Shown: positions 5,948 to 26,638 of the stretch, in pieces
How positions within the stretch are numbered: the stretch's first letter is position 1
How the letters are laid out: each line of letters opens with the position of its first letter
Assembly (NCBI GenBank): GCA_027486765.1
Contig: JAIXOO010000063.1
Location: 12,890 to 76,889, forward strand
DNA: 64,000 nt
Source of the DNA: Saprospiraceae bacterium
GTDB lineage: Bacteria; Bacteroidota; Bacteroidia; Chitinophagales; Saprospiraceae
Direction of reading: 5' to 3'
Notes under the pieces: model-generated
Seen by the model: only the letters and a program-made list of their open reading frames with translations
Database searches by the model: none
What the model was told of the DNA's origin: nothing
Translations under genes and position numbers: made by a program

Positions 5948-6523
5948 ATGAATCCATTGTCCCTAAACATCATCCTGGCTTCTACTTCACCCCGACGTAG
6001 TCAGCTGCTACGCGAAGCCGGTTTTAAATTTGAAATCAAAACCGTAGAGGTGGAAGAAACTTACCCACCCGAAACTCCAATTGATGAGGTAGCGGGGTAT
6101 TTGGCGCGTAAAAAAGCCTATGCTTCCCGCGAGTTTATCCAGCAAGATGAAATCATTCTGGCTGCCGATAGTGTGGTCATTCTGGATGGGGTCATTTATG
6201 GCAAACCGCTTGATGCAGCGGATGCCCGGCAGATGTTGCAAAAATTATCCGGGCAATTGCACCGGGTCATCACTGGGGTTTGTTTGTTGTCAAAAGATCA
6301 AGAAAAAGTATTTTCTGCCGAATCCCGCGTACAATTTGAAACGTTGAGCGATACTGAGATCGATTTTTACGTCGAAAAATACCGTCCTTTTGACAAGGCT
6401 GGCTCCTATGCCATTCAGGAATGGATCGGACTTTGTAAAATCTCTCGAATTGAAGGTACTTTTACCAACATTATGGGCTTGCCAGTAGATCAGGTTTATC
6501 GGGAGTTATTAGACTTTGTATGA
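5948..6523 (+). CDS. maf: Maf-family nucleoside triphosphate pyrophosphatase
   Basis: ILASTSPRR, AADSVV, YGKP and DKAGSYAIQ motifs. Confidence 0.95.
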   Translation: MNPLSLNIILASTSPRRSQLLREAGFKFEIKTVEVEETYPPETPIDEVAGYLARKKAYASREFIQQDEIILAADSVVILDGVIYGKPLDAADARQMLQKLSGQLHRVITGVCLLSKDQEKVFSAESRVQFETLSDTEIDFYVEKYRPFDKAGSYAIQEWIGLCKISRIEGTFTNIMGLPVDQVYRELLDFV

Positions 6524-6629
6524 AGTTGAGGAGTTAAGAAGTTGAGGCTACCGCGAGTGATTTTGACAAGGATCTTGTCTAAGCCTCTCGCGGTAGCCTC
6601 AACTCCTCAACTCCTCAACTCCTCAACTT
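6523..6629. repeat. Composite palindromic repeat, copy A (GGCTACCGC core with 8-mer arms)
   Basis: 53-bp core at 6546..6598 with a nested GACAAG/CTTGTC stem; left arm of three GAGTTGAG-type units, right arm of four CTCAACTC-type units. Confidence 0.9.
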
Positions 6630-6637
6630 TTTTTCTT

Positions 6638-8539
6638 ATGCATCAACCCATTGAGGTGCTCCGCCAATATTGGGGACATGAGCAATTCAGGCCCCAACAA
6701 GAGCACATCATTCAGTCGGTTTTGGAAGGAAGAGACACCCTGGCGCTGTTGCCAACGGGTGGCGGGAAATCCATTTGTTTTCAGGTGCCAGCCCTTTGTC
6801 AGGAGGGCATCTGCATTGTCATTTCGCCATTGATCGCCTTGATGAAAGATCAGGTGCAAAACCTGCAAAAAAAAGGCATCTCCGCTCTCGCCATCTACGC
6901 GGGAATGGCCTACCGAGATATTGACCGTTTGTTGGACAACTGCGTACATGGTGATGTAAAATTCCTCTACCTCTCGCCCGAGCGGCTGGTGAGTGACCTG
7001 GCACGGGAGCGCATCAAACGGATGAATGTCTCCTTTTTTGCCGTAGACGAAGCGCACTGTATTTCGCAATGGGGGTATGATTTTCGGCCACCTTACCTGG
7101 AAATTGCCAAAATACGGGACTTTTTTCCCCAAGCGCCAATTATCGCGTTGACTGCTACAGCCACCCAGGAAGTGGTGCAAGACATTCAGGCCAAGTTGGC
7201 TTTCCGGGATCAGCAGGTTTTTCAATCCAGTTTTGCCCGACCGAATCTGGCGTACATCGTGCGTCCCAGCGAGGCCAAAGAAGAACAACTCGTAGATATT
7301 TTGCAAAAAGTCCCCGGTAGTGGAGTCGTTTATGTGCGCAATCGGCGGCGGACGAAAGAGATTGCTCAATTGCTGCAAAAAAAACGCATCTCCGCCGATT
7401 TTTACCACGCAGGCCTCAGCCCCGACGAACGTTCCGCCAAACAGGACGCCTGGGTCAGCGGGCGCACGCGGGTGATGGTGAGTACCAATGCATTTGGCAT
7501 GGGCATCGACAAGCCGGATGTGCGCACGGTGGTGCACCTTGAATTACCGGATAGCTTGGAAGCTTACTTTCAGGAGGCTGGGCGGGGTGGGCGCGATGGG
7601 CTCAAGTCTTACGCCGTTTTGTTGTACAACCAAAACGACCGCCGCAGCCTGGAATACCAGTATGCGCAGGCTTTCCCCAGCTTGGACGAAGCCCGGCAAG
7701 TTTACCGGGCGCTGGGCAGTAATTTCCAATTGGCATTGGGAGGCGGCCAGGGTGAGAGTTATGATTTTGACATCTCCATTTTTTGTCAAAAATTCCAATT
7801 GGAGCCAGTACGCACTTTTAACTGCCTCAAATTGCTGGAGCAGGAAGGCTGGATTAGTTTGTCCGAAGCGGTTTTTACTCCTTCTACCCTACTGATCAAG
7901 GTGGACAAGGAGCGCTTGTACGATTACCAGATCAAAAACCGGGAGCTGGATAAAGTACTGAAAATCATTTTGCGCAGTTACCAAGGGGTTTTTTCTAGTT
8001 ATGTTGCCTTTAGCGAGAGAAAGTTGGCTGAGTATTGTAAAATTTCGTCTGAGCAACTACAACGGGCTTTGTTGCGCATGCAGGAAGACCACATCATTGA
8101 ATACAACCCACAAAAGGACAAACCGCAACTGAGTTATTTGCGCGAACGGGTGGATGCGGCCTACCTGACTTTTGACACGCAATTGTACAACTTCCGTAAA
8201 ACCCGCCACGCGGAGCGCATCCAAAAGGCGATTGGCTATGCCGAGGATAAAATCTGCCGCAGCCAACAATTATTGCATTATTTTGGTGAAAAAGACGCCC
8301 CGGCTTGTGGCGTTTGTGATGTCTGCCTGGAGCGCAAAAAGCAAAACCTCGATGGGGAAATGTTTGAACGCATTCGCCAAAAAGTTCAACGCCTCTTGGA
8401 GCAGGAAGCTCTGCCCGTCAAGGCGGTCGTCGATTCTTTTGCGCCCAAAACCCAGCAGCAAGTGCTTGAAACCCTCATTTTTATGCAAAACGAAGGCCTC
8501 CTGATTGAAAAAAACGGTAAACTCCAACTCAAAGCATGA
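6638..8539 (+). CDS. recQ: RecQ-family ATP-dependent DNA helicase
   Basis: PTGGGKS, DEAHCISQWGYDFRP, QEAGRGGRDG and a C-terminal Zn site (CRSQQLL...CGVCDVC). ATG at 6638; the ORF-track start at 6542 reads through the repeat. Confidence 0.95.
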   Translation: MHQPIEVLRQYWGHEQFRPQQEHIIQSVLEGRDTLALLPTGGGKSICFQVPALCQEGICIVISPLIALMKDQVQNLQKKGISALAIYAGMAYRDIDRLLDNCVHGDVKFLYLSPERLVSDLARERIKRMNVSFFAVDEAHCISQWGYDFRPPYLEIAKIRDFFPQAPIIALTATATQEVVQDIQAKLAFRDQQVFQSSFARPNLAYIVRPSEAKEEQLVDILQKVPGSGVVYVRNRRRTKEIAQLLQKKRISADFYHAGLSPDERSAKQDAWVSGRTRVMVSTNAFGMGIDKPDVRTVVHLELPDSLEAYFQEAGRGGRDGLKSYAVLLYNQNDRRSLEYQYAQAFPSLDEARQVYRALGSNFQLALGGGQGESYDFDISIFCQKFQLEPVRTFNCLKLLEQEGWISLSEAVFTPSTLLIKVDKERLYDYQIKNRELDKVLKIILRSYQGVFSSYVAFSERKLAEYCKISSEQLQRALLRMQEDHIIEYNPQKDKPQLSYLRERVDAAYLTFDTQLYNFRKTRHAERIQKAIGYAEDKICRSQQLLHYFGEKDAPACGVCDVCLERKKQNLDGEMFERIRQKVQRLLEQEALPVKAVVDSFAPKTQQQVLETLIFMQNEGLLIEKNGKLQLKA

Positions 8540-9633
8540 AACTGGTCTTCACGGTCACCAATGATTTGTGCTACGATCAACGGATGCAGCGCATCTGTAG
8601 CACCCTGAGGGCCGAAGGGCATGAGGTGACCCTGGTGGGGCGATTCCGCAAAACATCCCCTCTCCTACCCGCAGCTGACTATCGGCAAATCCGGCTACTC
8701 TGTTGGTTTGATAAAGGAAAACTGTTTTACCTGGAGTACAATTTCAGGTTGTTTTGGTGGTTGTTGCTGCAAAAAAGTTTTGACATCTACACAGGCATCG
8801 ACCTGGACACGATCATGCCTTGTCTGGGGGTAGCGCGCATGAAAAGAAAAAAGTGCTACTACGATGCGCATGAGTACTTCAGCGAGGTACCGGAGGTAGT
8901 TGATCGGCCTTTGACTAAGCGGATTTGGGAACTGGTCGCCAGAATTTGTATTCCTCGTGTAGATCGGGCCTATACCGTTGGCCCGGCATTGGCACAGATT
9001 TTCCAAGAGCGCTACGGTATTACCTTTCAAGTTGTGCGGAATATGCCATTCCAAAACAGTAGCCCCCTCTCAACTCCTCAACCCCTCAACTCCTCAACTT
9101 CATCCATTATCCTCTACCAAGGCGTACTCAATGCCGGCCGAGGCCTGGAAACGGCCATTGCCGCCATGCAAAAAATCGAAGGTGCTGAACTATGGCTCGC
9201 GGGCGAAGGGGATTTATCGGAGGAACTGCGGCAACTAGCGAAGGATTTGCAGGTGGAAAGCAAGGTGCATTTTTTGGGCTATTTGACACCCAAAGAACTA
9301 CGCTCTATCACCCAACAAGCCAGCATAGGCTTAAATCTGCTGGAAAACCGTGGTCTGAGTTACTATTATTCACTGGCCAATAAGGCTTTTGATTATGTGC
9401 AGGCAGGGGTGCCTTCGATTCAAATGAATTTCCCGGAGTATTTGGCACTGCAAGCAGAACACCGGGTTTTTTATTTGATCAATCGTTTGGAGGTGGAGGT
9501 GCTGGTGCAGGCGATTGAGCATTTGCTGGGGGATAGTGAGTTGTATTTGGCGCTGCAGGAGAATTGTAAAATAGCAGCGAAGGAATGGTGTTGGGAGCTC
9601 GAAAAAGAAAAACTGATTGCAATATATGCTTAA
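8536..9633 (+). CDS. Glycosyltransferase family 4
   Basis: GT-B motifs YDAHE, YQGVLNAGRG and NKAFDYVQAGVP. Confidence 0.9.
   Translation: MKLVFTVTNDLCYDQRMQRICSTLRAEGHEVTLVGRFRKTSPLLPAADYRQIRLLCWFDKGKLFYLEYNFRLFWWLLLQKSFDIYTGIDLDTIMPCLGVARMKRKKCYYDAHEYFSEVPEVVDRPLTKRIWELVARICIPRVDRAYTVGPALAQIFQERYGITFQVVRNMPFQNSSPLSTPQPLNSSTSSIILYQGVLNAGRGLETAIAAMQKIEGAELWLAGEGDLSEELRQLAKDLQVESKVHFLGYLTPKELRSITQQASIGLNLLENRGLSYYYSLANKAFDYVQAGVPSIQMNFPEYLALQAEHRVFYLINRLEVEVLVQAIEHLLGDSELYLALQENCKIAAKEWCWELEKEKLIAIYA
9069..9100 (+). repeat. Four CTCAACTC-type 8-mers inside the GT4 coding sequence
   Basis: ctcaactc-ctcaaccc-ctcaactc-ctcaactt, the same units as the right arm of copy A. Confidence 0.8.
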
Positions 9634-9719
9634 GTGTGCCTTCAGTGCCTTAGGTTTCTTAGGTGGTGAAGAAAAACATTATTCCACTACCTAAGAAACC
9701 TAAGGCACTGTAGGTACAC
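9634..9719. repeat. Long inverted repeat between convergent genes, possible bidirectional terminator
   Basis: Arms of about 36 bp with few mismatches, each built from short repeated units (CTTAGGT, GTGCC). Confidence 0.8.
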
Positions 9720-9727
9720 CTAAGTAG

Positions 9728-10459
9728 TTATTCTCTGCTGACCACATCCCCCGAACCCGAAACCTTCGAATTCATTCGTGGCCGCCCCTTATAATACACA
9801 TCACCGGACCCGCTGATCCGCACATCCAGATTTTCAGTACTGTGGATGGACGTGTTCCCTGAACCAGAAATCTGGATCGTAGCGGCTTCCACCTGCACAC
9901 CAATTGCAGAAATATCCCCGGAACCAGAGACGCTGGAATTCCAGGACTTGGCATTTCCTTTCAAGTTCATGTCACCAGAACCACTGATGCGCACTTCTAC
10001 ATCCGTTGCGTCAAAATCGAGATTCATGTTGCCGGAGCCAGAAATACCCAGTGCCAATGCACCGAGGTTTTTGAATGGAGTTTCCCCTTTAATGTCGCCG
10101 GAGCCGCTGATTTTTACGGCATTCAGTTTAGGCACGGTGATGTACACATTGAATTTGTCGTAACGACCTACGTTTTCGGTGAAGCGGATTTTCCAATGTT
10201 TGTCGACCACTTCTTTGGAGAGCAAACTGATCAGGTTTTCGTGTGATTCCACCTCTATTTTTTGTTCACTGCCCTGGCGCACGTAAACGTTGCCAGAGAA
10301 GGTCAGGCTAAACCCCTCAAAAGAAGAAACGTCTAGCGTTTTGCGTACAATGGCACCTTTGCCTTGTACACCATTGCCCCAACCCCAGGAGTTTTGGGCG
10401 GATAAGGATAGACCAGTCAGTAATAGAGTCAGGGTGAACAATGAGCTTAATGATTTCAT
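9728..10459 (-). CDS. Head GIN domain (DUF2807-like) secreted protein
   Basis: Signal peptide followed by repeated ISGSG(D/N) beta-solenoid turns. Confidence 0.9.
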   Translation of the reverse strand: MKSLSSLFTLTLLLTGLSLSAQNSWGWGNGVQGKGAIVRKTLDVSSFEGFSLTFSGNVYVRQGSEQKIEVESHENLISLLSKEVVDKHWKIRFTENVGRYDKFNVYITVPKLNAVKISGSGDIKGETPFKNLGALALGISGSGNMNLDFDATDVEVRISGSGDMNLKGNAKSWNSSVSGSGDISAIGVQVEAATIQISGSGNTSIHSTENLDVRISGSGDVYYKGRPRMNSKVSGSGDVVSRE

Positions 10460-10704
10460 CGAAGTGTTTTTTAGTATTCTCTTTCTGAGATGCTAAAAAG
10501 GACGAGTGCCCCCCAGCATAGGTTGCTTTTTTTGCCAAAAATCTTTTTAAACCATTTTTTTTGGTTAAAACAATCCTAATTTTCCTTCAAAAAGAGCGGA
10601 TTTTTGGCAGTTATGTTAAAGTAAAGTTACACCCCTCATCACGCTTTAAACTGGAGCTTTTCGAGCCAGTCTAATGGACAAATAACCAAAAAATCCTGTT
10701 TACT

Positions 10705-11103
10705 ATGAAAAAGATGATTGCTCTGCTGGCGCTGATTGTGCCAATGTTCTTGCTCGGAATGGTTGATGCACAAGCACAAGGCCGCTGGGAATTTTTAGGC
10801 AAACGTGCCGTCAATTATGGTTTGGATCGCGATGTGATCCCGGTTACCTGGCGCGATGGCGCTTTTGATGGGCTCAAAATTGAAGTCAAAGGAGGTGCGC
10901 TGAACATGCGCAAATGTGTGGTTCATTTCGAAAATGGCGGCAAACAAGAAATTGACCTGCGCCACAACTTTGACCGTGGCAGTGATTCAAGAGTAGTGGA
11001 TTTGCGTGGCAACAACCGTTTGGTTGAAAAAATCGAATTTTGGTACGACACCAAAAATGCTGCACGCAATAAGGCGGTGGTGTTTGTCTACGGAAGGCAT
11101 TAA
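10705..11103 (+). CDS. Secreted protein, DUF2541-like
   Basis: Signal peptide; WEFLG...DRDVI...V.FENG...SRVVDLRG..R.VEKIEFWY pattern. Confidence 0.75.
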   Translation: MKKMIALLALIVPMFLLGMVDAQAQGRWEFLGKRAVNYGLDRDVIPVTWRDGAFDGLKIEVKGGALNMRKCVVHFENGGKQEIDLRHNFDRGSDSRVVDLRGNNRLVEKIEFWYDTKNAARNKAVVFVYGRH

Positions 11104-11143
11104 CTGCTAAAAATAGACTGCTTTTAAGTCGGGTTTAAATGGC

Positions 11144-11180
11144 GAAGGCAAGTTCAGTACAACTGACTTGCCTTCTTTCG
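11144..11180 (+). terminator. Hairpin terminator between convergent genes
   Basis: GAAGGCAAGT at 11144-11153 pairs with ACTTGCCTTC at 11166-11175, followed by TTT. Confidence 0.6.
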
Positions 11181-11233
11181 TATTACCTCAAATGGTGTAA
11201 ATAAGCGAAAATAATTATTAGCAGTTGATGCGT

Positions 11234-12238
11234 TTAAAATGCGTTCACCCCGTTAACGGTGGTATATTTAAAGCTCAATTTTTTGTCTGGATTCACCCGT
11301 TTAAAGGCCGATTGGCACATCAAGGTAGCTTCGTGGAAACCGCACAAGATCAGTTTCAACTTGCCTTGGTAAGTATTGATGTCACCAATGGCGTACACTC
11401 CCGGGATGTTGGTGCTGTAATCCAAGGTATTTACTTCAATGGCGTTTTTATCCACATTCAAGCCCCAGCTGCCCAAAGGCCCGAGTTCGGGCGACAAGCC
11501 AAAAAGTGGGATAAAATAATCCGTAGGGCGTACCACTTCTCCCTTTTCCTTGGTATCAATCACCACATCGGTCAACACTCCATTGCCACGCAGACCAGTA
11601 GTTTGTGAGTCAGTCAACAAGTCAATGCGGCCACTGTGGGCCAACTCGTGTACTTTTTCTACTGAATCGGGTGCGCCACGGAAGTCCTTACGGCGGTGAA
11701 TCAGCGTCACTTCACTGGCTACTTCGGCCAGGAAAATGGTCCAGTCCAACGCGGAGTCACCTCCACCAGCGATCACTACCCGTTTATTGCGGTATTTTTC
11801 TGGATCCCGGATGATGTAATCGATGCCTTTGTCCTCAAAACGCTCCAGGTTCTCAAGTGGTGGTTTGCGGGGTTCAAAACAACCCAATCCGCCCGCAATG
11901 GCGATCACGGGTGCCTTAATTTGGGTGCCTTTGCTGGTAGTCAGCAGAAAGTGCCCATTTTCGAGTTGTTCAAATTTTTCAGCCCGCTCACCCAGGGTAA
12001 AGCCGGGTTTAAAAGGCTCAATTTGCTCCATCAGGCGATCAACCAAATCACCAGCCAAAATAGAAGGATACCCAGGGATATCGTAAATTGGCTTTTTTGG
12101 ATAAATTTCAGCCAATTGACCACCAGGTACTGGCAGTGAATCCACCAGGTGGCAGCGCATCTTCAACAATCCGGCCTCGAATACTGTGAAGAGCCCTACT
12201 GGCCCTGCTCCTACAATGAGAATGTCTGTCTGGATCAT
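11234..12238 (-). CDS. Thioredoxin-reductase-type ferredoxin-NADP+ reductase
   Basis: GAGPVG FAD site, GGQLAEIYPKKPIYDIPG, GGGDSALDW; no CxxC redox pair. Confidence 0.9.
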   Translation of the reverse strand: MIQTDILIVGAGPVGLFTVFEAGLLKMRCHLVDSLPVPGGQLAEIYPKKPIYDIPGYPSILAGDLVDRLMEQIEPFKPGFTLGERAEKFEQLENGHFLLTTSKGTQIKAPVIAIAGGLGCFEPRKPPLENLERFEDKGIDYIIRDPEKYRNKRVVIAGGGDSALDWTIFLAEVASEVTLIHRRKDFRGAPDSVEKVHELAHSGRIDLLTDSQTTGLRGNGVLTDVVIDTKEKGEVVRPTDYFIPLFGLSPELGPLGSWGLNVDKNAIEVNTLDYSTNIPGVYAIGDINTYQGKLKLILCGFHEATLMCQSAFKRVNPDKKLSFKYTTVNGVNAF

Positions 12239-12284
12239 TTGTTTGGATCAATTTTAACAGAAAAAGTGCACAAATTTACAACGA

Positions 12285-13010: not shown

Positions 13011-13022
13011 GCTATTTGTTGT

Positions 13023-13155
13023 GTTGAGGAGGTTGAGAAGGTTTAGGAGGTTTAGGAAGGTTTAGGCTACCGCGAGCGAATTTGACAAAGTCCTTGTCTA
13101 AGTTGCTTGCGGTAGCCTAAACCTTCCTAAACCTCCCTCAACCTTCTCAACCTTC
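13023..13155. repeat. Composite palindromic repeat, copy B (GGCTACCGC core with 9-10-mer arms)
   Basis: 53-bp core at 13065..13117; left arm GGTTGAGAA/GGTTTAGGA units mirrored by TAAACCTTCC/TCAACCTTC units on the right. Confidence 0.9.
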
Positions 13156-13156
13156 T

Positions 13157-13801
13157 TTATTTTTTCAAAAATTCAATACAATTCCCAGTACAGTTGCCCC
13201 CACATTCACATCCCGCCATGCCCGTTAGCAAGGTTGAGGTAATTTGATTGAGCATCCGCACTTTATGCGCGAAATCGCCACCGAGACGGTCGCGGATTTC
13301 GTTGAGTTTAGGCAGTAGGTCTTCCACTTCTTCCGGCAACGCGGCCTCCAATACCTGGCGGAAACGTTTGGCAAAAGTCGGCGACTGCCCATTCGTTGAA
13401 ATTCCAATTTTCAAAGGCCCGCGGGTCACGATTGATCCGAGGTAAAAATCACAGAGATCAGGTGTATCGGCTACGTTGATCAACTTGCCACTTGCTTTGG
13501 CGGCTTGTTGCACTTCGCGGTTCAATTCCGGGATGTTCGTTGCGGCAATGATCAGATCATGCCCCTGAAGATCCTCGATCTGAAAAGCTTTGTGCTGAAT
13601 TTGTACAAAGTGGGTTCCGATCTGACTCAGCAATTTTTCAATCTCCGGGTTTACCCAAGTGGCTACCATTGTAACCTGGGCTTTGGGGCTGCTTTTGAGG
13701 ATGAACGAGAGTTTTTCGTAACCCACTTCCCCGGCGCCTACTATGAGGGTACGCAGGGTGTGTAGTTTCAAAAAAACCGGATACAACTCGTTTTGCTCCA
13801 T
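13157..13801 (-). CDS. Precorrin-2 dehydrogenase / sirohydrochlorin ferrochelatase (SirC, CysG N-terminal-like)
   Basis: YPVFLKL, IVGAGEVG, NVADTPDLCDFY and ISTNGQSP. Probable ATG at 13801, just after the cobA stop; the ORF track starts at 13855. Confidence 0.9.
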   Translation of the reverse strand: MEQNELYPVFLKLHTLRTLIVGAGEVGYEKLSFILKSSPKAQVTMVATWVNPEIEKLLSQIGTHFVQIQHKAFQIEDLQGHDLIIAATNIPELNREVQQAAKASGKLINVADTPDLCDFYLGSIVTRGPLKIGISTNGQSPTFAKRFRQVLEAALPEEVEDLLPKLNEIRDRLGGDFAHKVRMLNQITSTLLTGMAGCECGGNCTGNCIEFLKK

Positions 13802-13802
13802 C

Positions 13803-14606
13803 TTAGACGCTGATGTGTTCATTGGTAACTTTCCCCTTTTTTGACAAAGCCACATAATTTGGCTCGGCTTGTTTGTATTGAGGGTGCAAAGCTACTACAT
13901 CTCCAATAACTATAATGCCTGGAGAACTCGCATCAGCCATTGCTACACGTTCAGACAGGTTGTGTACACGCCCCAAGACAACTTTTTCCTCGGGCGTAGA
14001 ACCATTTTGAACCACCATAGCTGGAGTATCTTTTTTACCTAGGGCCGTATAAATGTCCATGATGTCACCGAGCTTGCGCATGCCCATCAAGATGACCGCA
14101 GTAGCACTGGACTGAGCCGCCAATTCTACATCTTTGGAGATGCTGCCCGAGCGGGTTGTACCCGTTACCACCCAAAAACTTTCATTGATGCCCCGACAAG
14201 TTACCGGAACACCTTGCAAGCCCGGAACTGCGATGCAGGAAGAAAGCCCTGGAACGATGTCCACTTTGATACCAAACATGGCCGCATGGGCCATTTCTTC
14301 GTAGCCACGACCAAAAACGAAGGGGTCGCCACCTTTCAGACGCACCACATGACCATGATTCATGGCGTATTCTACCAACATCCAGTTGATGTCTTCCTGA
14401 GGGTGGGTGTGTTTGGAGGCGCGTTTGCCAACATCCACCAGGATCGCACCGGGGCGCACCATGTCGAGCACATCGTCGCTTACCAGAGCGTCGTAGAGTA
14501 CGACGTCGGCTTGCTGAAGCGCTTTCCAGGCTTTGATCGTGAGCAGTTCTGGATCACCAGGACCTGCACCAACGAGGGTTATTTTGGGTATGATTGGATT
14601 GGTCAT
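13803..14606 (-). CDS. cobA: Uroporphyrinogen-III C-methyltransferase
   Basis: LVGAGPGDPELLT, VVRLKGGDPFVFGRG and VPGLSS motifs. Confidence 0.95.
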   Translation of the reverse strand: MTNPIIPKITLVGAGPGDPELLTIKAWKALQQADVVLYDALVSDDVLDMVRPGAILVDVGKRASKHTHPQEDINWMLVEYAMNHGHVVRLKGGDPFVFGRGYEEMAHAAMFGIKVDIVPGLSSCIAVPGLQGVPVTCRGINESFWVVTGTTRSGSISKDVELAAQSSATAVILMGMRKLGDIMDIYTALGKKDTPAMVVQNGSTPEEKVVLGRVHNLSERVAMADASSPGIIVIGDVVALHPQYKQAEPNYVALSKKGKVTNEHISV

Positions 14607-14618
14607 GTTTCTTTTTTT

Positions 14619-14708
14619 CCCACGGCTAAAGCCATGGGTTGGTGATCTTGGGATGCTTTACCCACGAATAAATTCATGGGTTGCGTGGGTTAAACGGCTA
14701 AAGCCGTT
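14619..14708. repeat. Cluster of three REP-like palindromes
   Basis: CCCACGGCTAAAGCCATGGG (14619-14638), CCCACGAATAAATTCATGGG (14661-14680), AACGGCTAAAGCCGTT (14693-14708). Confidence 0.85.
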
Positions 14709-14719
14709 GGTTGTCCGGG

Positions 14720-16923: not shown

Positions 16924-16961
16924 AAAAAAGCCCTGTCAGATAGAATCCGGCAGGGCTTTTT
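16924..16961 (-). terminator. Intrinsic terminator in the 5' leader of the sulfur operon (attenuator)
   Basis: Minus strand reads AAAAAGCCCTGCCGGATTCTATCTGACAGGGCTTTTTT: GC-rich stem plus U6, ending 47 nt before the start codon at 16876. Confidence 0.85.
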
Positions 16962-16992
16962 ATGCTAAAGGACAATATATGTACACATCAAG

Positions 16993-17293: not shown

Positions 17294-17311
17294 ACTTATT
17301 TGATTACAAAA

Positions 17312-18826: not shown

Positions 18827-19089
18827 AGTCAGGATTTAAATTTGGGTGAAATTTAGGCTTTTCCACCTTACCATGCCACTCTATTTTAGAATAATCGCCC
18901 AACGGACATTCTACTGGGATAAAACCTTTCTTTACAACCGATCCTGATCTGAATGTGTTTGTTTCTAACCAGTCTGTGATGAAAATTACAGCCTACATAT
19001 TAATACCTTGATTAAATTTGCGCACAATTCCGCAAAGAGCATGTCTATAAGTTTTTTGTTTTGCTCTAAGGATATAAAAACAGTGAACA

Positions 19090-20034: not shown

Positions 20035-20115
20035 GGTTCCAAAGTTCCAGGGTTCCTAGGTTCCAAGGTTGGGCTGCCAAACCCTGGAACTTTGGAACCC
20101 AGGAACTTTGGAACC
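20035..20115. repeat. Inverted arrays of GGTTCCAA-type 8-mers
   Basis: Four GGTTCCA(A/G)-type units facing four TGGAAC-type units across a short loop. Confidence 0.85.
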
Positions 20116-20142
20116 TTGTACAAACACACAAACACTTTAACC

Positions 20143-21222
20143 ATGTCAACAGCTACCCGTTTTCGCGCTGGGGTACTCTTTGGAGAAGAAGTAACCGAGT
20201 TGCTGAATTATGCCAATGAAAACAACTTTGCATTGCCAGCCGTCAATGTAATTGGCACCAACTCTGTCAATGCCGTTTTGGAAACTGCTCGTGATGTCAA
20301 CTCACCAGTAATCATTCAGTTCTCCAATGGTGGCGCTTCTTTCTTTGCAGGAAAAGGCGTAAGCAATTCCGGCCAAAAGGCTTCCATTATCGGCGGTATT
20401 TCCGGTGCGATGCACGTTCATCAGGTGGCAGAAGCCTACGGAGTTCCGGTGATTTTACATACCGACCACTGTGCCAAAAACCTGCTACCCTGGGTTGACG
20501 GTTTGCTGGACGCAAGCGAAAAACATTTCGCAGCTCATGGTCAACCATTGTACAGCTCCCACATGCTCGACTTGTCGGAAGAACCACTGCACGAGAACAT
20601 TGAAATCTGCGTGGAGTACTTCAAGCGCATGGCTAAAATGGGCATGACCCTGGAAATTGAATTGGGCGTAACTGGTGGTGAAGAAGACGGTGTAGACAAC
20701 TCAGACGTGGACAACTCCAAACTTTACACCCAGCCAGAAGAAGTTGATTACGCTTACCAACACTTGAAAGCAGTCAGCCCTAACTTCACCATCGCAGCTG
20801 CCTTCGGTAACGTACACGGCGTATACAAACCCGGCAACGTGCAGCTGACCCCCAAAATCCTGAAAAACTCTCAGGATTTCATCAAGGCCAAACACAACCT
20901 GAGTGGTGATACTCCCGTTAACTTTGTATTCCATGGTGGTTCTGGTTCTTCTCGGGCAGAAATCCGCGAGGCGATCGAGTACGGTGCCATCAAAATGAAC
21001 ATCGACACGGATATTCAATGGGCATACTGGGCCGGCGTGAAGGATTATTACGTAAAAAATGAAGGTTATCTTCAAGGCCAAATCGGCAACCCTGAAGGTG
21101 ACGACAAACCGAATAAAAAATTCTACGATCCACGCGTATGGTTGCGGGAAGGGGAAAAAAGCCTCATCTCACGCCTGAAAGTGGCATTTGAGGATTTGAA
21201 TTGTATCAACCGCAACGTTTAA
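20143..21222 (+). CDS. fbaA: Class II fructose-bisphosphate aldolase
   Basis: LHTDHC, HMLDLS, FGNVHGVYKPG, FHGGSG and KMNIDTD. ATG at 20143; the ORF-track start at 20092 lies in the repeat. Confidence 0.97.
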   Translation: MSTATRFRAGVLFGEEVTELLNYANENNFALPAVNVIGTNSVNAVLETARDVNSPVIIQFSNGGASFFAGKGVSNSGQKASIIGGISGAMHVHQVAEAYGVPVILHTDHCAKNLLPWVDGLLDASEKHFAAHGQPLYSSHMLDLSEEPLHENIEICVEYFKRMAKMGMTLEIELGVTGGEEDGVDNSDVDNSKLYTQPEEVDYAYQHLKAVSPNFTIAAAFGNVHGVYKPGNVQLTPKILKNSQDFIKAKHNLSGDTPVNFVFHGGSGSSRAEIREAIEYGAIKMNIDTDIQWAYWAGVKDYYVKNEGYLQGQIGNPEGDDKPNKKFYDPRVWLREGEKSLISRLKVAFEDLNCINRNV

Positions 21223-21230
21223 AAGTGCTG

Positions 21231-21323
21231 AATGATGAGTGATGATTGATGATTTGGATACACCAAAAGTTTTTTAACGTTTGGAATTTGTCTAAATGAT
21301 AACTCATCACTCACCATTCATTG
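21231..21323. repeat. Inverted arrays of TGATGA-type 7-mers around a central spacer
   Basis: AATGATGAGTGATGATTGATGA on the left is mirrored by CTCATCACTCACCATTCATT on the right. Confidence 0.65.
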
Positions 21324-21338
21324 CTCATCATTCAAAAA

Positions 21339-22184
21339 ATGGATCTGAATCTAGAGCGTGATCTTTGTTTTTTCGATATTGAAGCGACTGGCCTCAATGT
21401 AGTACGCGACCGCATCGTACAAATTGCCATCATCAAGTACCTCAAGGATGGTCGGGAGCCGCAGGAACTTTCCCTGATGATCAATCCAGGTATTCCCATT
21501 TCCCTGGAAGCGATGTTGGTACACGGCATTCAGCCCAAAGATGTGGCGAACAAACCTACCTTTCAACAATTGGCGCAAAAAATCTGGGACTTCATTGGCA
21601 ATGCTGATCTGGCGGGGTACAATTCAACCCGTTTCGACATTCCAATGTTGATGGAAGAATTTGCACGGGTAGGAATGGAATTTGACATCAGCAAACGGCG
21701 CTCAATTGACATCCAGCGGATTTTTTACAAAATGGAGCCCCGCACGCTCAAGGCTGCCCTCAAGTTCTACTGCGACAAAGACCATGACGAAGCCCATGAT
21801 GCTATGGCGGATGTGCGTGCCACAATTGATGTGTTTTTCGGTCAATTGGGCAAGTATGAGGGGGTGGACTATCGGGATGAGGATGGCAACATTCTGGAAG
21901 CTCCAGTGAAAAACGATGTACAAACCTTGCACGAATTTACCAACGACAACCGTTTTGTGGATGCCACCCAAAAATTGCGTGCGGATGTGAATGGAGACAT
22001 CGTCTTCAATTTTGGCAAATACATGGGCAAACCCGTCGGCGAAACCTTGTACGAAGACCGCCAGTACTACAACTGGATCCTCAACAAGGAATTCACCTCA
22101 CAGGTCAAACAAATGGTCAAGAAACTGGTTCGCGAGTACGAAAAAGGGCTGAAAGGCAAAGAAGAAAACGGAAACAAGGAATAA
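21339..22184 (+). CDS. DEDDh 3'-5' exonuclease (DnaQ/epsilon-like)
   Basis: FFDIEATG, GYNSTRFD, AHDAMADV; C-terminal FNFGKYMGK. Confidence 0.92.
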   Translation: MDLNLERDLCFFDIEATGLNVVRDRIVQIAIIKYLKDGREPQELSLMINPGIPISLEAMLVHGIQPKDVANKPTFQQLAQKIWDFIGNADLAGYNSTRFDIPMLMEEFARVGMEFDISKRRSIDIQRIFYKMEPRTLKAALKFYCDKDHDEAHDAMADVRATIDVFFGQLGKYEGVDYRDEDGNILEAPVKNDVQTLHEFTNDNRFVDATQKLRADVNGDIVFNFGKYMGKPVGETLYEDRQYYNWILNKEFTSQVKQMVKKLVREYEKGLKGKEENGNKE

Positions 22185-22190
22185 ATTAAA

Positions 22191-23042
22191 ATGAAAAAGG
22201 TGTTGAAGTTATTGCAGTTGGGGGTCCTGTGCGCAATAAGCATCCTTTTGTCCACTTGCGCTACTCGTGAAGAAGGATGCAACGATGCCTTAGCCAATAA
22301 TTTCGACCTGGGTGCCGACAAACCCTGCGACGGTTGCTGTGAATATCCCGGGGTGCGCATCCGTCTTTCCCACAAGTACGGCAACACGCCTATGGCCTAC
22401 AATCAAACCATCTTCACCGATGGAGCAGGCAACACCTTCGGATTCGGCGATCTGCGTTTTTATCTTTCCAACATCCAGTTGCTTTCGGTTGGCAATAAAA
22501 TCATTGACGTCCAGGAACCCCTGGATGTTTACCTTGAAAAAGCGGCTGGCGACACCGTAAAAACCAGTGTTCCCAATAGTTACGGTCTGGCTCGGGGGCT
22601 CGGCCAAGCCGACATGTACATTCAATCTTATCGGGATACCGCCACCATCAACCGCATTCGGTTTACCGTTGGGGTGAGTGGCGAAATGAACCAGGCCAAT
22701 CCGCGGCGTTTGCCCACTGATCACCCTATGCGCAGTAGCGTGTACGATGGTATGTACCTGGGGGCGCAGAATGGCTACGTGTTTGCGCGTAGCTTATACT
22801 ATGCAAAAGATACGGTAGACATTAAAATTAGCGGCAGTACGAACCTGCGCACCGTTGAATTGTCCTTTACACCAACGAAGCTCCAACGTGGGTACAACCT
22901 CAATGTTTTGATGGATGTGGACTATGCCCTTTGGTTTCAAACGGTAAATGTGAACAGTGATACTCCGGCTCAAATCAGTCAAAAAATTATTGAAAAATTG
23001 GCACAGTCTTTTAACATTACGCAGGTTTCTACTAGTTTATAG
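22191..23042 (+). CDS. MbnP-like lipoprotein
   Basis: Lipobox-like LSTC, GCNDALANNFD...CCEYP segment, then LRFYLSNIQL and GYVF typical of the MbnP family. Confidence 0.7.
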   Translation: MKKVLKLLQLGVLCAISILLSTCATREEGCNDALANNFDLGADKPCDGCCEYPGVRIRLSHKYGNTPMAYNQTIFTDGAGNTFGFGDLRFYLSNIQLLSVGNKIIDVQEPLDVYLEKAAGDTVKTSVPNSYGLARGLGQADMYIQSYRDTATINRIRFTVGVSGEMNQANPRRLPTDHPMRSSVYDGMYLGAQNGYVFARSLYYAKDTVDIKISGSTNLRTVELSFTPTKLQRGYNLNVLMDVDYALWFQTVNVNSDTPAQISQKIIEKLAQSFNITQVSTSL

Positions 23043-23077
23043 TTTACATTTGCCAAATTACTTAACCAAATTTCATC

Positions 23078-25612
23078 ATGCAATTCATGACCAGATTAAC
23101 CCTCCTCAGCTTGCTGTTCATGCTCACGGTAAGCCTGTGTTTCGCTCAAGACAAAAAACCAGACGTACCAGCAACTTCAGGAGCTGCTGCGCCAAAAGAA
23201 ACGCCCAAGCCTGGGCCAAAACCTTTCCGTGAAGTCATCACTGACAAAGCCATCAGCAGCAAAGGTTTGGTGAACGTGCACAAAGTAGAAGACAAGTGGT
23301 TCTTCGAAATCCCGGACAGCATCTTTAAACGGGAAATCATGACCGTAACCCGCTACGCTAAAACAGCAGCTGGTGGTGGCATCTTCGGCGGTGAAGAAGT
23401 AAACCGCCAGGTTATCGCCTGGGAACGTGGCCCTGACAACAAGGTGTTCTTGCGCTCCATCACCCAAATCATCGTCAGTCCGGATAGTACCAAGCCTATT
23501 TTTAAGGCGGTCAAAAATTCCAGTGCAGATCCGATCGTGGCCTCTTTTGACATCAAATCGATCCGTAAAGACACTTCGGTGCTGATTGATGTAACCGATT
23601 TTTTCAAAGGGGACAATCAGATTTTTTCGCTCAACCCGATTAGCAAGCAGTTGCTCAAAATTTCTGACTACAAAGCCGATCGCTCCTTTGTTCAGAGCAT
23701 TCGTACTTATCCGATCAATACAGAAATCCGAACGGTTAAAACCTTTGGTTCACAATCACCTACCATCTCGTTGGTCCCAACGCCACAGATTGGAACCTTT
23801 CTCCCAGCTGGTGTTGACGCAGGAGTGGTGACCATGGAGTTCAATACTTCGATGATCATTTTGCCCAAAAAACCGATGCGCGTTCGCCATTTTGATCCCA
23901 GGGTCGGTTACTTTTCCACAGGATATGGCACTTTTGAAGAAGAATCTCAAAAAGCCGACGAAGAACAAATTGCCGTACGCTGGCGCCTGGAACCCAAAAA
24001 CGCAGCAGACGCCCAAAAGCAAAAACGTGGCGAACTCATCGAACCCGCCAAACCCATCATCTATTACATCGATCCAGCCACTCCCATCAAGTGGCGAAAA
24101 TACCTCAAACAAGGGGTAGACGATTGGCAAAAAGCTTTTGAAAAAGCGGGTTGGAAAAATGCCATCCGTGGCGAATACTGGCCCGAGCAAGATACGACCA
24201 TGAGCTTGGAGGACGCACGGTTCTCGGTGATCCGCTACTTTGCCGCCGAAATCCAAAACGCTTACGGCCCCAACGTCAATGACCCACGTTCTGGCGAAAT
24301 CCTGGAAAGCCACATCGGTTGGTACCACAATGTCATGCGATTGCTGCGCAACTGGTACCTGATTCAAACCGCCGCCAGCGATCCAAAGGCGCGCAAAAAA
24401 GATTTTGACGACGAACTGATGGGGCAACTGATTCGTTTTGTGTCTTCTCACGAAGTGGGGCACACCCTGGGTTTGCGCCACAACATGGGTGCAAGTTCAG
24501 CAACACCAGTTGAAAAACTGCGTGACAAAGCCTGGGTAGCTCAAAACGGCCACACTTCTTCCATCATGGACTACGCCCGTTTCAACTATGTAGCCCAGCC
24601 TGAAGATGGGGTAACCGACTTTTTCCCCCGCATTGGCGACTACGACATCTGGGCCATCGAATGGGGCTACAAATACTTCGTTGATGCCAAAAGCGACGAT
24701 GAGGAGAAAAAATTGCTCCACGACCTGACCAAAGAAAAGGTAAAAAATCAACGCCTGGCCTTTGGCACCGAAGTGAGCCCCAACGACCCGCGTTACCAAA
24801 CCGAAGACTTGAGCGACAACTCCATGAAAGCTTCGGAATATGGGGTCAAAAACCTCAAGCGCATCCTGCCCAACCTGCCCGAATGGAGCAAGGAAAATGG
24901 CGAGAGTTATTCTGAATTGGAAGAGCTGTACAACAACGTAGTGGGCCAATTCAACCGCTACCTCGGCCACGTCACCAAAAACGTAGGGGGCATTTATGAT
25001 ACGCCCAAAACTTACGACATGGCCGGAGCGGTGTTTGAGGCAGTGCCCAAAGATCGCCAAAAAGAAGCCATGGCCTTCTTGAGCAGCCATTTGTTTGAGA
25101 CGCCTACCTGGCTCATGGACGGCAATATTTTGAATAAAATCCGTCCGGACGCCGGGGTAGATGCCATCAAAACTTTGCAGGAAAATACCTTGAACAACTT
25201 GCTGTCGGGCAGCCGCATTGCGCGTTTGTTGGAAACAGGCAAGGATGGCAATTACACCCTGGATGAAATGATGACCGACTTGCGCAACAGCATTTGGTCA
25301 GAATTAAAAAGCCAAAAAGCCATCGACATTTACCGCCGTAACCTGCAAAAGGTTTTTGTAGAAAAAGCCATCACCTATTTGGCGCCCAAAGACCCTGCTA
25401 CCATCCAGTATGTACCTGCGGGTGGCGCTTACGGTTCAAATATCCGTCGGGTTGATCTAAAAACCACCGACTTGCCTTCCATCACCCGTGGGCAATTGGA
25501 ATCTTTGTTGTCAGAAATCAAAGCAGCCATTGGTGCTGCGCCAGATAAATTGACGCGTTACCATTTGGAAGATGTGGCGAATCGATTGGATTCGGCTTTG
25601 CATCCCAAGTAG
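23078..25612 (+). CDS. Secreted zinc metalloprotease (DUF5117/DUF4953 type)
   Basis: Signal peptide; HEVGHTLGLRHN zinc motif; SSIMDYARFNY Met-turn. Confidence 0.93.
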   Translation: MQFMTRLTLLSLLFMLTVSLCFAQDKKPDVPATSGAAAPKETPKPGPKPFREVITDKAISSKGLVNVHKVEDKWFFEIPDSIFKREIMTVTRYAKTAAGGGIFGGEEVNRQVIAWERGPDNKVFLRSITQIIVSPDSTKPIFKAVKNSSADPIVASFDIKSIRKDTSVLIDVTDFFKGDNQIFSLNPISKQLLKISDYKADRSFVQSIRTYPINTEIRTVKTFGSQSPTISLVPTPQIGTFLPAGVDAGVVTMEFNTSMIILPKKPMRVRHFDPRVGYFSTGYGTFEEESQKADEEQIAVRWRLEPKNAADAQKQKRGELIEPAKPIIYYIDPATPIKWRKYLKQGVDDWQKAFEKAGWKNAIRGEYWPEQDTTMSLEDARFSVIRYFAAEIQNAYGPNVNDPRSGEILESHIGWYHNVMRLLRNWYLIQTAASDPKARKKDFDDELMGQLIRFVSSHEVGHTLGLRHNMGASSATPVEKLRDKAWVAQNGHTSSIMDYARFNYVAQPEDGVTDFFPRIGDYDIWAIEWGYKYFVDAKSDDEEKKLLHDLTKEKVKNQRLAFGTEVSPNDPRYQTEDLSDNSMKASEYGVKNLKRILPNLPEWSKENGESYSELEELYNNVVGQFNRYLGHVTKNVGGIYDTPKTYDMAGAVFEAVPKDRQKEAMAFLSSHLFETPTWLMDGNILNKIRPDAGVDAIKTLQENTLNNLLSGSRIARLLETGKDGNYTLDEMMTDLRNSIWSELKSQKAIDIYRRNLQKVFVEKAITYLAPKDPATIQYVPAGGAYGSNIRRVDLKTTDLPSITRGQLESLLSEIKAAIGAAPDKLTRYHLEDVANRLDSALHPK

Positions 25613-25630
25613 TTGTATTTCAGGATAATT

Positions 25631-25698
25631 CAAAGGGCACAAAGCGACGTCTACGTCTAACTTTGTGCCCTTTGTGCTGCCTTTGTGTTCTTTGTGCT
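25631..25698 (+). repeat. Hairpin with CTTTGTG tandem units, possible terminator
   Basis: CAAAGGGCACAAAG/CTTTGTGCCCTTTG 14-bp stem; CTTTGTG occurs four times on the right side. Confidence 0.65.
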
Positions 25699-26428
25699 AA
25701 AAAATGTCGCTTTGGCATATTCAATACTTGAAATAAAGATCCCTGTGACACCAACAACCCATCGCTGGAACACCTACGAAATCCTCTGGTTCCTCTTTTT
25801 CACCGCTCTCGCCATCACCCTTTGTTTCCTTTGGAAAAATTCCTTTTTTGACTTCAGTGTCTTTTTATCCGGCGTATTTTGTGTGCTCCTCGCTGCCAAA
25901 GGCAACGTCTGGACCTACAGTTTTGGGATGTACAACTCCCTGGCTTATGCCTATCTGGCTTACCACAATCAATTATTCGGTGAGACTTACCTCAATCTTT
26001 TCTTTTTTGTCCCCACCAATATCCTGGGCTACCTGCTTTGGAAACCTAAATTGGATGGTGCTTACGTGCAAATGCGTGCCCTGGCCTTGAAGTGGGTCAT
26101 CCTGACCTTAATCGTTTGTATGTTGAGCATTGCGGGTATGGGTTATGCTCTGGCTTTGAATCCCCAACAAAACACGCCGTACATTGATGCAACCACCAAT
26201 GTATTGTCTATCGTAGCTACTATTTTGATGATGTACCGCTACCGCGAGCAGTGGCTTTTGTACATTTTACTAAATGTATTCACCGTCTTGATGTGGAGCA
26301 TCCGTGCCGCCAACGGTAGTGCCGAAGGGCCTTTGATGATCGTGATGTGGTCGGCTTATTTGATCAATGCGGGATATGGGTATTGGAATTGGAGTCGTGG
26401 CGCAAAATTAGTTGAGGAGTTGAAGTAA
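25685..26428 (+). CDS. pnuC: Nicotinamide riboside transporter PnuC
   Basis: Multiple TM helices, LAAKGNVW, PYIDATTN, QWLLYILLN. The true start is probably near GTG 25745. Confidence 0.9.
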   Translation: MFFVLKNVALAYSILEIKIPVTPTTHRWNTYEILWFLFFTALAITLCFLWKNSFFDFSVFLSGVFCVLLAAKGNVWTYSFGMYNSLAYAYLAYHNQLFGETYLNLFFFVPTNILGYLLWKPKLDGAYVQMRALALKWVILTLIVCMLSIAGMGYALALNPQQNTPYIDATTNVLSIVATILMMYRYREQWLLYILLNVFTVLMWSIRAANGSAEGPLMIVMWSAYLINAGYGYWNWSRGAKLVEELK

Positions 26429-26490
26429 TTTGGTTATCGAGCGCTTGACATAATATCTATTCATTTTACCCTAAGACTCTTTTGAGATAA

Positions 26491-26638
26491 GAGTTCCGAA
26501 TACATGAGTACATGAGTTTTGAAGTGGGCTACCGCAGCGACTCAGACACAGCCTTGGTCTAAGTCGCTGCGGTAGCCCACTTCAAAACTCTCTCTTCACT
26601 TCAATACTCTAAACTCATGTATTCGGAACTCGGAACTC
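26491..26638. repeat. Composite palindromic repeat, copy C
   Basis: 51-bp core GGCTACCGC...GTCTAAG...GCGGTAGCC at 26527..26577; mirrored GAGTTCCGAATACATGAG and TTTTGAAGTG arms. Confidence 0.88.

Follow-up and report, generated by a model that had tools for sequence, protein, structure and literature searches.

A dispersed family of composite palindromic repeats with mirrored tandem-repeat arms in relatives of Haliscomenobacter (Bacteroidota)

Why do three spacers between ordinary housekeeping genes share one palindromic core, and how did the short tandem repeats on its two sides come to mirror each other within a copy while differing between copies? An earlier note raised this question for a 64,000-nt stretch of a Saprospiraceae genome (GenBank assembly GCA_027486765.1, contig JAIXOO010000063.1, positions 12,890 to 76,889 of the forward strand), called the window below, whose host, judged from its sequence, is a relative of Haliscomenobacter in the Bacteroidota. 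The three elements belong to a dispersed family of non-autonomous composite palindromes, distinct from simple REPs as that note had supposed, which is present in at least six related genomes. We consider it probable that they form a lineage-restricted family of foldback palindromic repeats, non-autonomous and peculiar to the Haliscomenobacter clade (Bacteroidota, Saprospiraceae). Elements are gained and lost as whole hairpins, that is, as the core plus its two inverted arms.

The window elements and the family they belong to

The core pattern GGCTACCGC-N25-45-GCGGTAGCC had exactly three matches in the window (6546-6598, 13065-13117 and 26527-26577), all on the plus strand, and none of 100 shuffles of the window contained a match. 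A covariance model of 81 family members, run over the 64 kb with its filters off, recovered the same three sites and no others, confirming the cores that the earlier note had listed. The parts of the three elements are the following.

6523-6545, no strand assigned: left arm of copy 1, three imperfect octamers (AAGTTGAG GAGTTAAG AAGTTGA)
6546-6598, plus strand: core of copy 1, 53 nt, quasi-palindromic, GGCTACCGC GAGTGATTTTGACAAGGATCTTGTCTAAGCCTCTC GCGGTAGCC, 68.9 bits with the covariance model
6599-6629, no strand assigned: right arm of copy 1, TCAACTCC four times, error-free
13023-13064, no strand assigned: left arm of copy 2, GGTTGAG/GGTTTAGGA units of 9-10 nt
13065-13117, plus strand: core of copy 2, 53 nt, found by pattern and covariance model
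13118-13156, no strand assigned: right arm of copy 2, ending one base short of the stop codon of a sirohaem-synthase-like gene
26480-26526, no strand assigned: left arm of copy 3, fixed subfamily arm TTTTGAG..GAGTTCCGAATACATGAGTACATGAGTTTTGAAGTG
26527-26577, plus strand: core of copy 3, 51 nt, found by pattern and covariance model
26578-26646, no strand assigned: right arm of copy 3, ending in ACTCAATAAAAA

Each core is flanked on the left by a purine-rich arm of short repeats and on the right by its approximate reverse complement. The left arm of copy 1 begins at the final base of the Maf stop codon (TGA, 6521-6523), and its right arm is followed by a T run and then by the RecQ start codon. 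Tandem Repeats Finder reported the octamer of this copy (CCTCAACT) four times at 6597-6628, with a 78% version at 6522-6543. The 9-10-mers of copy 2 were reported at 13023-13066 and 13116-13155, next to the sirohaem-synthase-like gene on the minus strand (13157-13855). The arms of copy 3 are described by GAGTTCC/TACATGAG units (TACATGAG 2.1 times at 26501-26517 and TCGGAAC 2.3 times at 26623-26638).

That left and right arms mirror each other within a copy holds in so far as they are inverted repeats (47, 43 and 34+28 nt in copies 1, 2 and 3, respectively, at 87-97% complementarity), but the mirrors of copies 1 and 3 are imperfect. Copy 1 sets three imperfect left units against four perfect right ones, and in copy 3 the duplicated units differ between left and right. 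The right arm of copy 3 also contains a one-sided, imperfect direct duplication of 19 nt (CACTTCAA[A/T]ACTCT at 26578-26591 and 26597-26610), absent from other members of its fixed-arm subfamily. On either strand, the whole elements are predicted to fold into one long hairpin of 50-70 bp (-66 to -101 kcal/mol, z -12 to -18). A putative fourth copy at 42015-42066 was rejected, being coding sequence that the covariance model does not match.

Outside the window, the pattern GCTACCGC…TCTAAG…GCGGTAGC was scanned against about 186,000 species genomes and gave at least 92 loci; among the matches listed, nearly all lie in six metagenome-assembled genomes (MAGs) labelled Haliscomenobacter, Saprospiraceae or Chitinophagales. 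At orthologous loci, these six MAGs are mostly 85-93% identical to one another and to the window. Sequence stretches from related genomes and metagenome contigs carry locus labels beginning with L in this work. A profile hidden Markov model and a covariance model were built from the same 81 cores and used to search the element-bearing DNA (about 755 kb). In it, nhmmer found 115 copies, about 20 of which had not been selected by the search pattern, and cmsearch gave concordant matches. The density is approximately one copy per 20-30 kb and equals that of the window, so that, extrapolating from density rather than counting, a genome of 7.5-8.5 Mb probably holds a few hundred copies. The earlier note had named a handful of copies genome-wide, and identical sites across distant relatives, as signs that would speak against a family of this kind; neither was found, as copies are numerous and the sites are polymorphic between relatives.

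Freshwater metagenome runs hold the window almost word for word (99% of sampled words). No model match was obtained in 837 kb of more distant Saprospiraceae-like metagenome contigs around trxB homologues, no exact match to the core pattern in viral contigs, and no core match in the PLSDB plasmids. Rfam 15 had no match in the window at the gathering threshold, and a permissive search returned only generic long-hairpin (miRNA precursor) matches far below it. A full-text search of the literature by sequence string or organism found no description of the family. A cyanobacterial affiliation (STRR/SDR-like) was discarded, as the listed matches are in Haliscomenobacter/Saprospiraceae and the single Nostoc match (27 bits) is weak and due to chance. 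One 1.5-kb contig binned in an 'Alphaproteobacteria' MAG (L027, JANMDF010000196.1) has two copies of typical build with GTTGAG arms, and has probably been mis-binned, its true source being Haliscomenobacter-like.

Anatomy of cores, arms and apical modules

The core is a near-perfect palindrome of 49-53 nt within an element of about 85-140 bp, and its consensus is GGCTACCGC(G)AGCGA-TTTTGACAA-N5-TTGTCTAAG-TCGCT(C)GCGGTAGCC. Its asymmetry reduces to two positions, with T.G and T.T oppositions (ATTTTGAC vs GTCTAAGT). About one third of the exact 51-nt cores lack one or other of these mismatches (C.G at position 15 in 20 of 57, A.T at position 18 in 13 of 57), and fully symmetric variants occur in L055, L069, L075 and L078. 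The central GACAA-N5-TTGTC (a 5-nt loop with its closing stem) is present in both orientations relative to the mismatch positions, as the loop variants TGTCC and GGACA, or AGTCC and GGACT, demonstrate. Copies found independently of the pattern include compensatory GGCTGCC…GGCAGCC variants, plus G.T and A.C intermediates. Covariation within the core is modest (double changes in 8 of 23 pairs; 22 cells vs 10.4 in shuffles) and four stem positions are unpaired in 24-30 of the 81 sequences, indicating that it is mainly the sequence, and not just the pairing, that is conserved.

Conservation of this kind raises the possibility, very improbable in our judgement, that the 51-bp palindrome is a double-stranded DNA site bound by a dimeric or tetrameric host protein (nucleoid-associated or chromosome-organising), to which the periodic arms would add contacts. 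Primary sequence is strongly conserved in both half-sites, also in copies outside the search pattern; the function of such a site would not depend on orientation, and the arm subrepeats have a period of 7-10 bp. However, arm units are wholly different between subfamilies (GTTGAG, GATGARA, GTGAAAA, GAATGAC), the apical part of the core is exchangeable for unrelated modules, no candidate protein is known, and the tight placement beside stop codons described below would be left unexplained.

The arms have a median length of 30 nt, are built of 7-10 nt subrepeats and are purine-rich on the 5' side; as they are inverted, either strand, read 5' to 3', begins with purine-rich and finishes with pyrimidine-rich sequence. 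Arm subfamilies go with particular core variants.

Subfamily a: arm units RRGTTGAG / GGTTTAGGA; outer core ends GGCTACC
Subfamily b: arm units GATGARA heptamers; outer core ends TGCTACC…GGTAGCA
Subfamily c: fixed arm of about 45 nt, a T-run plus TTGAGTNACGAGTTCCGAATACATGA…GAGTTTWGAAGTG, conserved across genomes; includes window copy 3
Rarer arm types: GTTGAAAA, GTGAAAA, GAATGAC

GTTGAG-type arrays in the element-bearing DNA were found beside an intact core (122), beside a degenerate or variant core (17) or alone (2). With 139 of 141 arrays adjoining a core, the arms are part of the element and not a pre-existing target. The essentially fixed arm of the copy 3 type (about 45 nt) is common to at least 11 copies in several genomes and is not a free tandem array. 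The earlier idea of a composite with swappable arms therefore needs to be restricted: modules do exchange over evolutionary time, but arms are not swapped within a subfamily and those of copy 3 are fixed. Arms are subfamily-specific and inherited with the core rather than freely swapped.

Elements of subfamily c are flanked on one or both sides by the motif ATCAATTGCCTGATAATCAAC-N-CCTCAAGTCTAAT, often directly 5' of a start codon (window 26682-26711; L007, L019, L025, L049, L079 and others). This motif may represent a promoter or leader that the element brings along.

26682-26711, plus strand: flanking motif of subfamily c, ATCAATTGCCTGATTCACCTCAAGTCTAAT, directly before the NadR start codon

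Two stretches of arm-like sequence in the window are coding. The last codons of PnuC (…VEELK*, 26405-26428) consist of arm-like sequence AGTTGAGGAGTTGAAGTAA. A solo octamer array without core (CTCAACTC 3.9 times, 9069-9099, plus strand) lies in frame in a glycosyltransferase open reading frame (ORF; 8536-9633), within the linker between two Pfam domains, and encodes roughly ...SPLSTPQPLNSSTS....; it is one of the two arrays found alone in the 755 kb.

The centre of the hairpin can also be exchanged. In L062 (approximately 1230-1290) and L037, GT-rich heptamers (GTGTGAG/GTGTGAT/GTGTGGG) totalling about 45 nt take the place of the inner core, with the outer stem and the arms preserved; the orthologous site in L082 (2088-2137) holds a standard core. 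A similar GT-rich heptamer block is present in L087 (5429-5460). A second apical module, CCGG(T)CAC-TGAGCG(A/T)AG(C/T)CGAA-GTGCCGG, replaces the inner core in L005, L020, L042 and L072. It was found in 16 copies (in L005, L015, L020, L037, L042, L050, L054, L056, L062, L072, L073, L082 and L088), nearly all at a hairpin apex and with several arm types; the copy in L067 is not obviously apical. As CCGG(T)CAC-TGAGCGWAGYCGAA-GTGCCGG, the module caps hairpins with GGTTCC arms and is also enclosed by GGCTACCGC stems that have GTTGAG arms. The GCGAAGC mini-hairpin motif is present in some of its variants, and in L054 and L062 the module is flanked by inverted copies of part of itself.

The window contains two further palindromes of related design that lack the core.

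20035-20118, no strand assigned: core-less palindrome of the trxB|fba spacer, with GGTTCCAA-type arms that mirror each other about the centre GGGCTGCC
9621-9732, no strand assigned: member of another palindrome family, between convergent genes, with tandem-repeat arms of CTTAGGTG units flanking GGTGGTGAA..TTCCACTACC

The GGTTCC-arm family, to which the first belongs, recurs in L044, L082 and L015, the last two with a different apical module; the CTTAGGTG-arm family recurs in L079, L060, L048 and L086. The notion that the GGGCTGCC centre of the 20035 hairpin is an excision remnant of GGCT[ACC…GGTA]GCC was set aside as a 7-mer coincidence. A one-sided tandem array (GAACCCTG 7.9 times, 30519-30581) is built of the unit type seen in the arms of the palindrome at 20035-20118, and a long intergenic inverted repeat at 21229-21334 has no match among the loci.

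This nesting could reflect a hierarchical system, in which tiny palindromic modules (the 51-bp core, the CCGGTCAC-TGAGCGWAGYCGAA-GTGCCGG stem-loop and the GT-rich heptamer blocks) would insert without target duplication into the apices of existing hairpins, while the arms would be made or re-symmetrised by fold-back (hairpin-primed) synthesis. We regard this extended scheme as decidedly unlikely; if it were true, mobility and palindrome growth would proceed without a known transposase family.

Change at orthologous sites and the search for an enzyme

Most checkable copies are shared between genomes, and the differences between orthologous sites show what is gained, lost or altered. Copy 2 is shared with Haliscomenobacter bins.171 (L067), with 53 of 53 core positions identical and four arm differences, none of them mirrored. 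The whole element (about 145 bp) is absent from the syntenic metagenome contig L093 (approximately 77% identity), in which 12 nt separate the same gene ends. Copy 3 lies in a spacer of 283 nt; L175 (bins.171), L176 and L178 have no spacer at this place, their pnuC and nadR genes overlapping by 4 nt, and L174 has a short spacer there with the flanking motif only and no hairpin. At the trxB|fba site, where the window has its core-less palindrome, Haliscomenobacter JTS-AC203 (L045) carries a full core element with GTTGAG arms within the same boundaries, and L093 carries a third, unrelated hairpin. L030 and L065, about 95% identical in the flanks of one common site, have members of different subfamilies there. 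No target-site duplication is visible at cysH|cysG (window vs L093), trxB|fba (L045 vs window) or pnuC|nadR (window vs L175), the empty sites being diverged or rearranged.

Around copy 3, the PnuC C-terminus of bins.171 (L175) differs from that of the window. The NadR-like protein (window 26712-27719) is approximately 72-76% identical to proteins named from Paenibacillus, Clostridium, Lysinibacillus and Limnobaculum; this identity across phyla is unusually high, so that horizontal transfer of the gene is possible.

The core can be inverted in place. Between L010 and L035, 50 of 51 positions agree after flipping vs 37 of 51 without; for L080 compared with L051 and L070 the values are 46 of 51 vs 38-39 of 51. 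Core orientation is unbiased relative to gene direction (27:28), uncorrelated with the local GC skew (53/94, p = 0.26) and mixed along a 4.5-Mb contig. The earlier note had remarked that the asymmetric GTCTAAG lies on the plus strand in all three window copies. This is correct, but in view of the even orientations and the in-place flips it is best read as chance (probability 1/4) and carries no meaning.

After correction for orientation, core identity between orthologues is 90.6%, vs approximately 79% for the arms and for 255-nt flanks. Arms change by one-sided gain or loss of units (L002/L072, L008/L058 and the four-genome L037 set), and orthologous arms are hardly more alike than those of unrelated copies of the same class within one genome (79% vs 76%). 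A further sign that the earlier note had named as contrary, a loss of arm symmetry in other copies, was not found either: the two arms of a copy pair better with each other than with arms of other copies of the same class (score 19.5 vs 15.1, higher in 56 of 77, p = 4e-7), and also better than with arms of orthologues (21.2 vs 16.9, p = 0.015, the pairs not being independent). The excess over orthologue pairing is due to 4-5 pairs in which both arms changed jointly (both arms changed together in L051/L070, L056/L078 and L030/L065); where arms are still recognisable, own and cross-orthologue pairing are equal.

These comparisons bear on the process that the earlier note had invoked for the symmetry, one that would write or homogenise the two arms of every copy; in its strong version this would be a dedicated activity, such as hairpin-primed synthesis or a repeat-adding enzyme. 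Such an activity would account for the better pairing of own arms over cross-copy and cross-orthologue arms, and the flanks of the second module in L054 and L062, as inverted copies of part of the module, resemble the product of a fold-back copy. However, pairing with orthologues is as good as own pairing where arms are still related, and the differences between orthologous arms are one-sided, with no mirrored change, so that nothing continuously writes both arms. Many stems also keep uncorrected mismatches, and in some copies, such as L073, the arms plainly fail to match, the left one there being made of GATGAAT units and the right one a perfect TCTCTCA array. We hold arm writing to be a very improbable explanation of the family.

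In the foldback reading that we prefer, mirror symmetry would come from descent as a palindromic unit together with processes intrinsic to palindromes. Strand switching and arm-to-arm conversion are established behaviours of palindromes. Subrepeats would slip independently in each arm, giving rapid arm variation, while strand switching within an element or arm-to-arm conversion would invert the core in place and yield compensatory double changes; the same events may occasionally restore symmetry or replace an element with another family member. Small apical stem-loop modules would be nested within varied combinations of arm and outer stem. Insertion would leave no target-site duplication, and the mobilising enzyme presumably acts in trans.

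As for that enzyme, the earlier note had suggested a trans-acting HUH/Y1 transposase. In the form of a REP/REPIN-type system, one or a few genes at other places in the genome would encode a domesticated HUH/Y1 transposase (RAYT/TnpA_REP) that recognises and mobilises the folded single-stranded DNA. The high copy number, the intergenic location, the lack of visible target-site duplication and the conserved GTAG/CTAC in the outer stem all agree with such a system, and the conserved asymmetric T.G and T.T would stabilise the hairpin of one strand, a feature that strand-specific HUH enzymes read. For Bacteroidetes, TnpA_REP subclasses 2.4 and 2.6 are reported, whose structures are of the 'double foot' kind (5'-GTAG…CTAC-3') or atypical (PMC6006769). 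RAYT genes also exist in other Saprospiraceae: genes for RAYT-type Y1 transposases (NHIH…YIHWNP) were found in more distant Saprospiraceae contigs (L134, 13091-13618; L173, 3001-3516).

However, these genes are bracketed by a different, conventional REP, GTTGTTGGCG(G/A)GGACGCCAACAAC (accompanied in L134 by a palindrome of about 95 nt), so that the RAYTs of the relatives flank a REP, GTTGTTGGCGGGGACGCCAACAAC, unrelated to our family. RAYT genes are normally flanked by their own REPs, and a search of the ORFs with an HUH/Y motif expression plus tblastn with a Saprospiraceae RAYT yielded nothing in the DNA that carries the 115 copies. The tetranucleotides are also reversed: the foot of a REP (GT[AG]G outside the stem, on the 5' side) is not seen, and GTAG lies instead in the 3' half of the outer stem (5'-GGCTACCGC…GCGGTAGCC-3', that is, 5'-CTAC…GTAG-3' and not 5'-GTAG…CTAC-3'). 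In addition, the missing mismatches in a third of the exact cores and the lack of correlation between orientation and GC skew speak against such a system. With no RAYT in the element-bearing DNA and reversed in-stem tetranucleotides, a RAYT in trans is possible but unsupported, and we hold a REP/RAYT origin to be unlikely.

Several observations count against the foldback reading itself. No mobilising enzyme was identified, and we saw neither a transposition event nor a recent duplicate within a genome, arms being at most 81% alike even at identical cores. The copy number per genome is an extrapolation, the lack of target-site duplication rests on three filled/empty comparisons of diverged or rearranged sequence, and the joint arm changes fit arm-to-arm conversion and wholesale replacement equally well. 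Finally, the conservation of the core and the re-use of one site by different hairpins could reflect host selection for a hairpin and not selfish spread.

Placement beside genes, known systems and significance

The elements lie between ordinary housekeeping genes (Maf|RecQ, CysH|sirohaem synthase, PnuC|NadR, TrxB|Fba). None of the 76 classified copies is inside an ORF of at least 100 aa; 27 lie between genes co-directional with the GTCTAAG strand, 28 between genes co-directional against it, 17 between convergent and 4 between divergent genes. Divergent spacers are depleted (4 of 76, compared to 17.6% of gene junctions in the same DNA, p = 0.0015). The spacers are short, and the element occupies about 73% of its own. 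The median distance between the outer end of an arm and the adjoining gene is 5 nt where that gene presents its stop codon (interquartile range 0-13, in some cases with overlap) and 37 nt where it presents its start codon. A T run of at least four after the hairpin is not enriched, whether all sides are taken together or transcript exits are set apart (18 of 93 transcript-exit sides vs 16 of 69 other sides; background about 10%). The family was consequently not assigned to the canonical intrinsic terminators, which its location near stop codons would fit but its lack of T-tract enrichment on the transcript-exit side does not. A hairpin resembling a conventional bidirectional terminator is present at window 16925-16961 (AAAAAGCCCTGTCAGAT…ATCCGGCAGGGCTTTTT), showing that ordinary A-tract/hairpin/T-tract structures do exist in this genome.

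This placement brings in a different explanation, which we take as a tentative possibility: a host-selected RNA element, in which an orientation-independent hairpin signal at 3' ends or between cistrons (for instance one that RNase III cleaves, that stops 3' exonucleases or that acts as a non-canonical terminator) would be primary and the repeat nature secondary. The short distance to stop codons and the avoidance of divergent spacers agree with it, as do the equal frequency of both orientations, the conservation of the core above that of its flanks, and the three unrelated hairpins in the trxB|fba spacer of three genomes. About 200 contigs with family members, reading through into unique flanks, were present in wastewater runs labelled RNA-seq; however, these are contigs only, carry-over of DNA is possible, and the depth per copy is no higher than that of genes. 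The conservation of sequence and not of pairing, noted above for the core, and the lack of a T tract at transcript exits also argue against an RNA element, as does the one copy inserted between genes that overlap in relatives and are there probably translationally coupled. Under the foldback reading, a role in the host, if there is one, would not depend on orientation; an RNA hairpin acting between cistrons or at 3' ends would be its most plausible form.

Most work on dispersed palindromic repeats concerns Proteobacteria (REP/RAYT, ERIC, Correia) and cyanobacteria. The present elements are of a known kind, behaving like REP, MITE or foldback-type repeats. Like the family described here, REP/REPIN sequences with their RAYT are lineage-specific, intergenic, imperfect palindromes, present by the hundreds near gene 3' ends, with conserved GTAG/CTAC and without visible target-site duplication. 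They differ in length (20-40 bp vs 85-140 bp here); in our family the tetranucleotide is in the stem and reversed, the arms are tandem subrepeats, and no RAYT gene lies beside any of the 115 copies. MITE-like repeats (Correia/NEMIS of Neisseria, RUP/BOX, ERIC, Rickettsia RPE) share the non-autonomous nature, a length of about 100-150 bp, terminal inverted repeats (here the inverted arms), insertion near genes and folding as hairpins in transcripts. They sometimes add in-frame codons, as seen here in the PnuC C-terminus and the glycosyltransferase linker. In our elements, unlike these repeats, the whole is one continuous palindrome and the arms vary in subrepeat number, except in the fixed-arm subfamily. 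A further difference is that no target-site duplication was seen in the three filled/empty comparisons. No parent insertion sequence with matching ends was noticed, although the loci were not searched for longer arm-bounded elements.

Foldback (FB) elements of Drosophila and other eukaryotes have long inverted arms of short tandem subrepeats, variable between copies, around a central non-repeat segment. Our elements show the same architecture, inverted subrepeat arms that vary between copies around a unique centre, and in both cases the arms of one copy appear alike while subrepeat number and order differ between copies. FB elements are eukaryotic, kilobase-scale and in some cases contain coding sequence, so that the analogy is one of architecture only. 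The small dispersed repeats (SDR) and tandem heptamer repeats (STRR) of the Nostocaceae, reportedly described by Elhai et al. in 2008, are said to be tiny nested intergenic hairpin modules with short tandem repeats, with no known enzyme or target-site duplication. By that description, the SDRs differ in phylum, sequence and size (21-27 nt), whereas here the tandem repeats are mirror arms tied to a core and not arrays that were there beforehand. Arm-to-arm gene conversion and template switching are known from quasipalindrome correction in E. coli and from Y-chromosome palindromes. The same processes would account here for centre inversion, compensatory double changes and the likeness of arms within a copy, but they are general DNA processes that define no element family and leave the spread to new sites unexplained. 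Integron attC sites were considered and discarded: the arm units GTTGAGG and GTTTAGG do not fit GTTRRRY, and copies are dispersed among housekeeping genes (maf, recQ, cysH, trxB, nadR).

Within the searchable literature and the databases used, the family is apparently undescribed. As far as shown, new to that literature are the family as such, the joining of mirror subrepeat arms to a conserved core, the nested exchangeable apical modules and the occurrence in Bacteroidota. The family is abundant, in Bacteroidota of a lineage that is common in activated sludge and in freshwater, and its architecture of conserved core, hypervariable subrepeat arms and exchangeable apical modules is unusual for bacteria. 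Such repeats will break short-read assemblies and can mislead binning, as in the 'Alphaproteobacteria' MAG with contig L027. The series of orthologous sites that are empty, filled, flipped or replaced is a natural system for the creation, inversion and tolerance of palindromes in bacterial chromosomes, and could reveal whether a hairpin directly behind a stop codon influences the fate of the mRNA.

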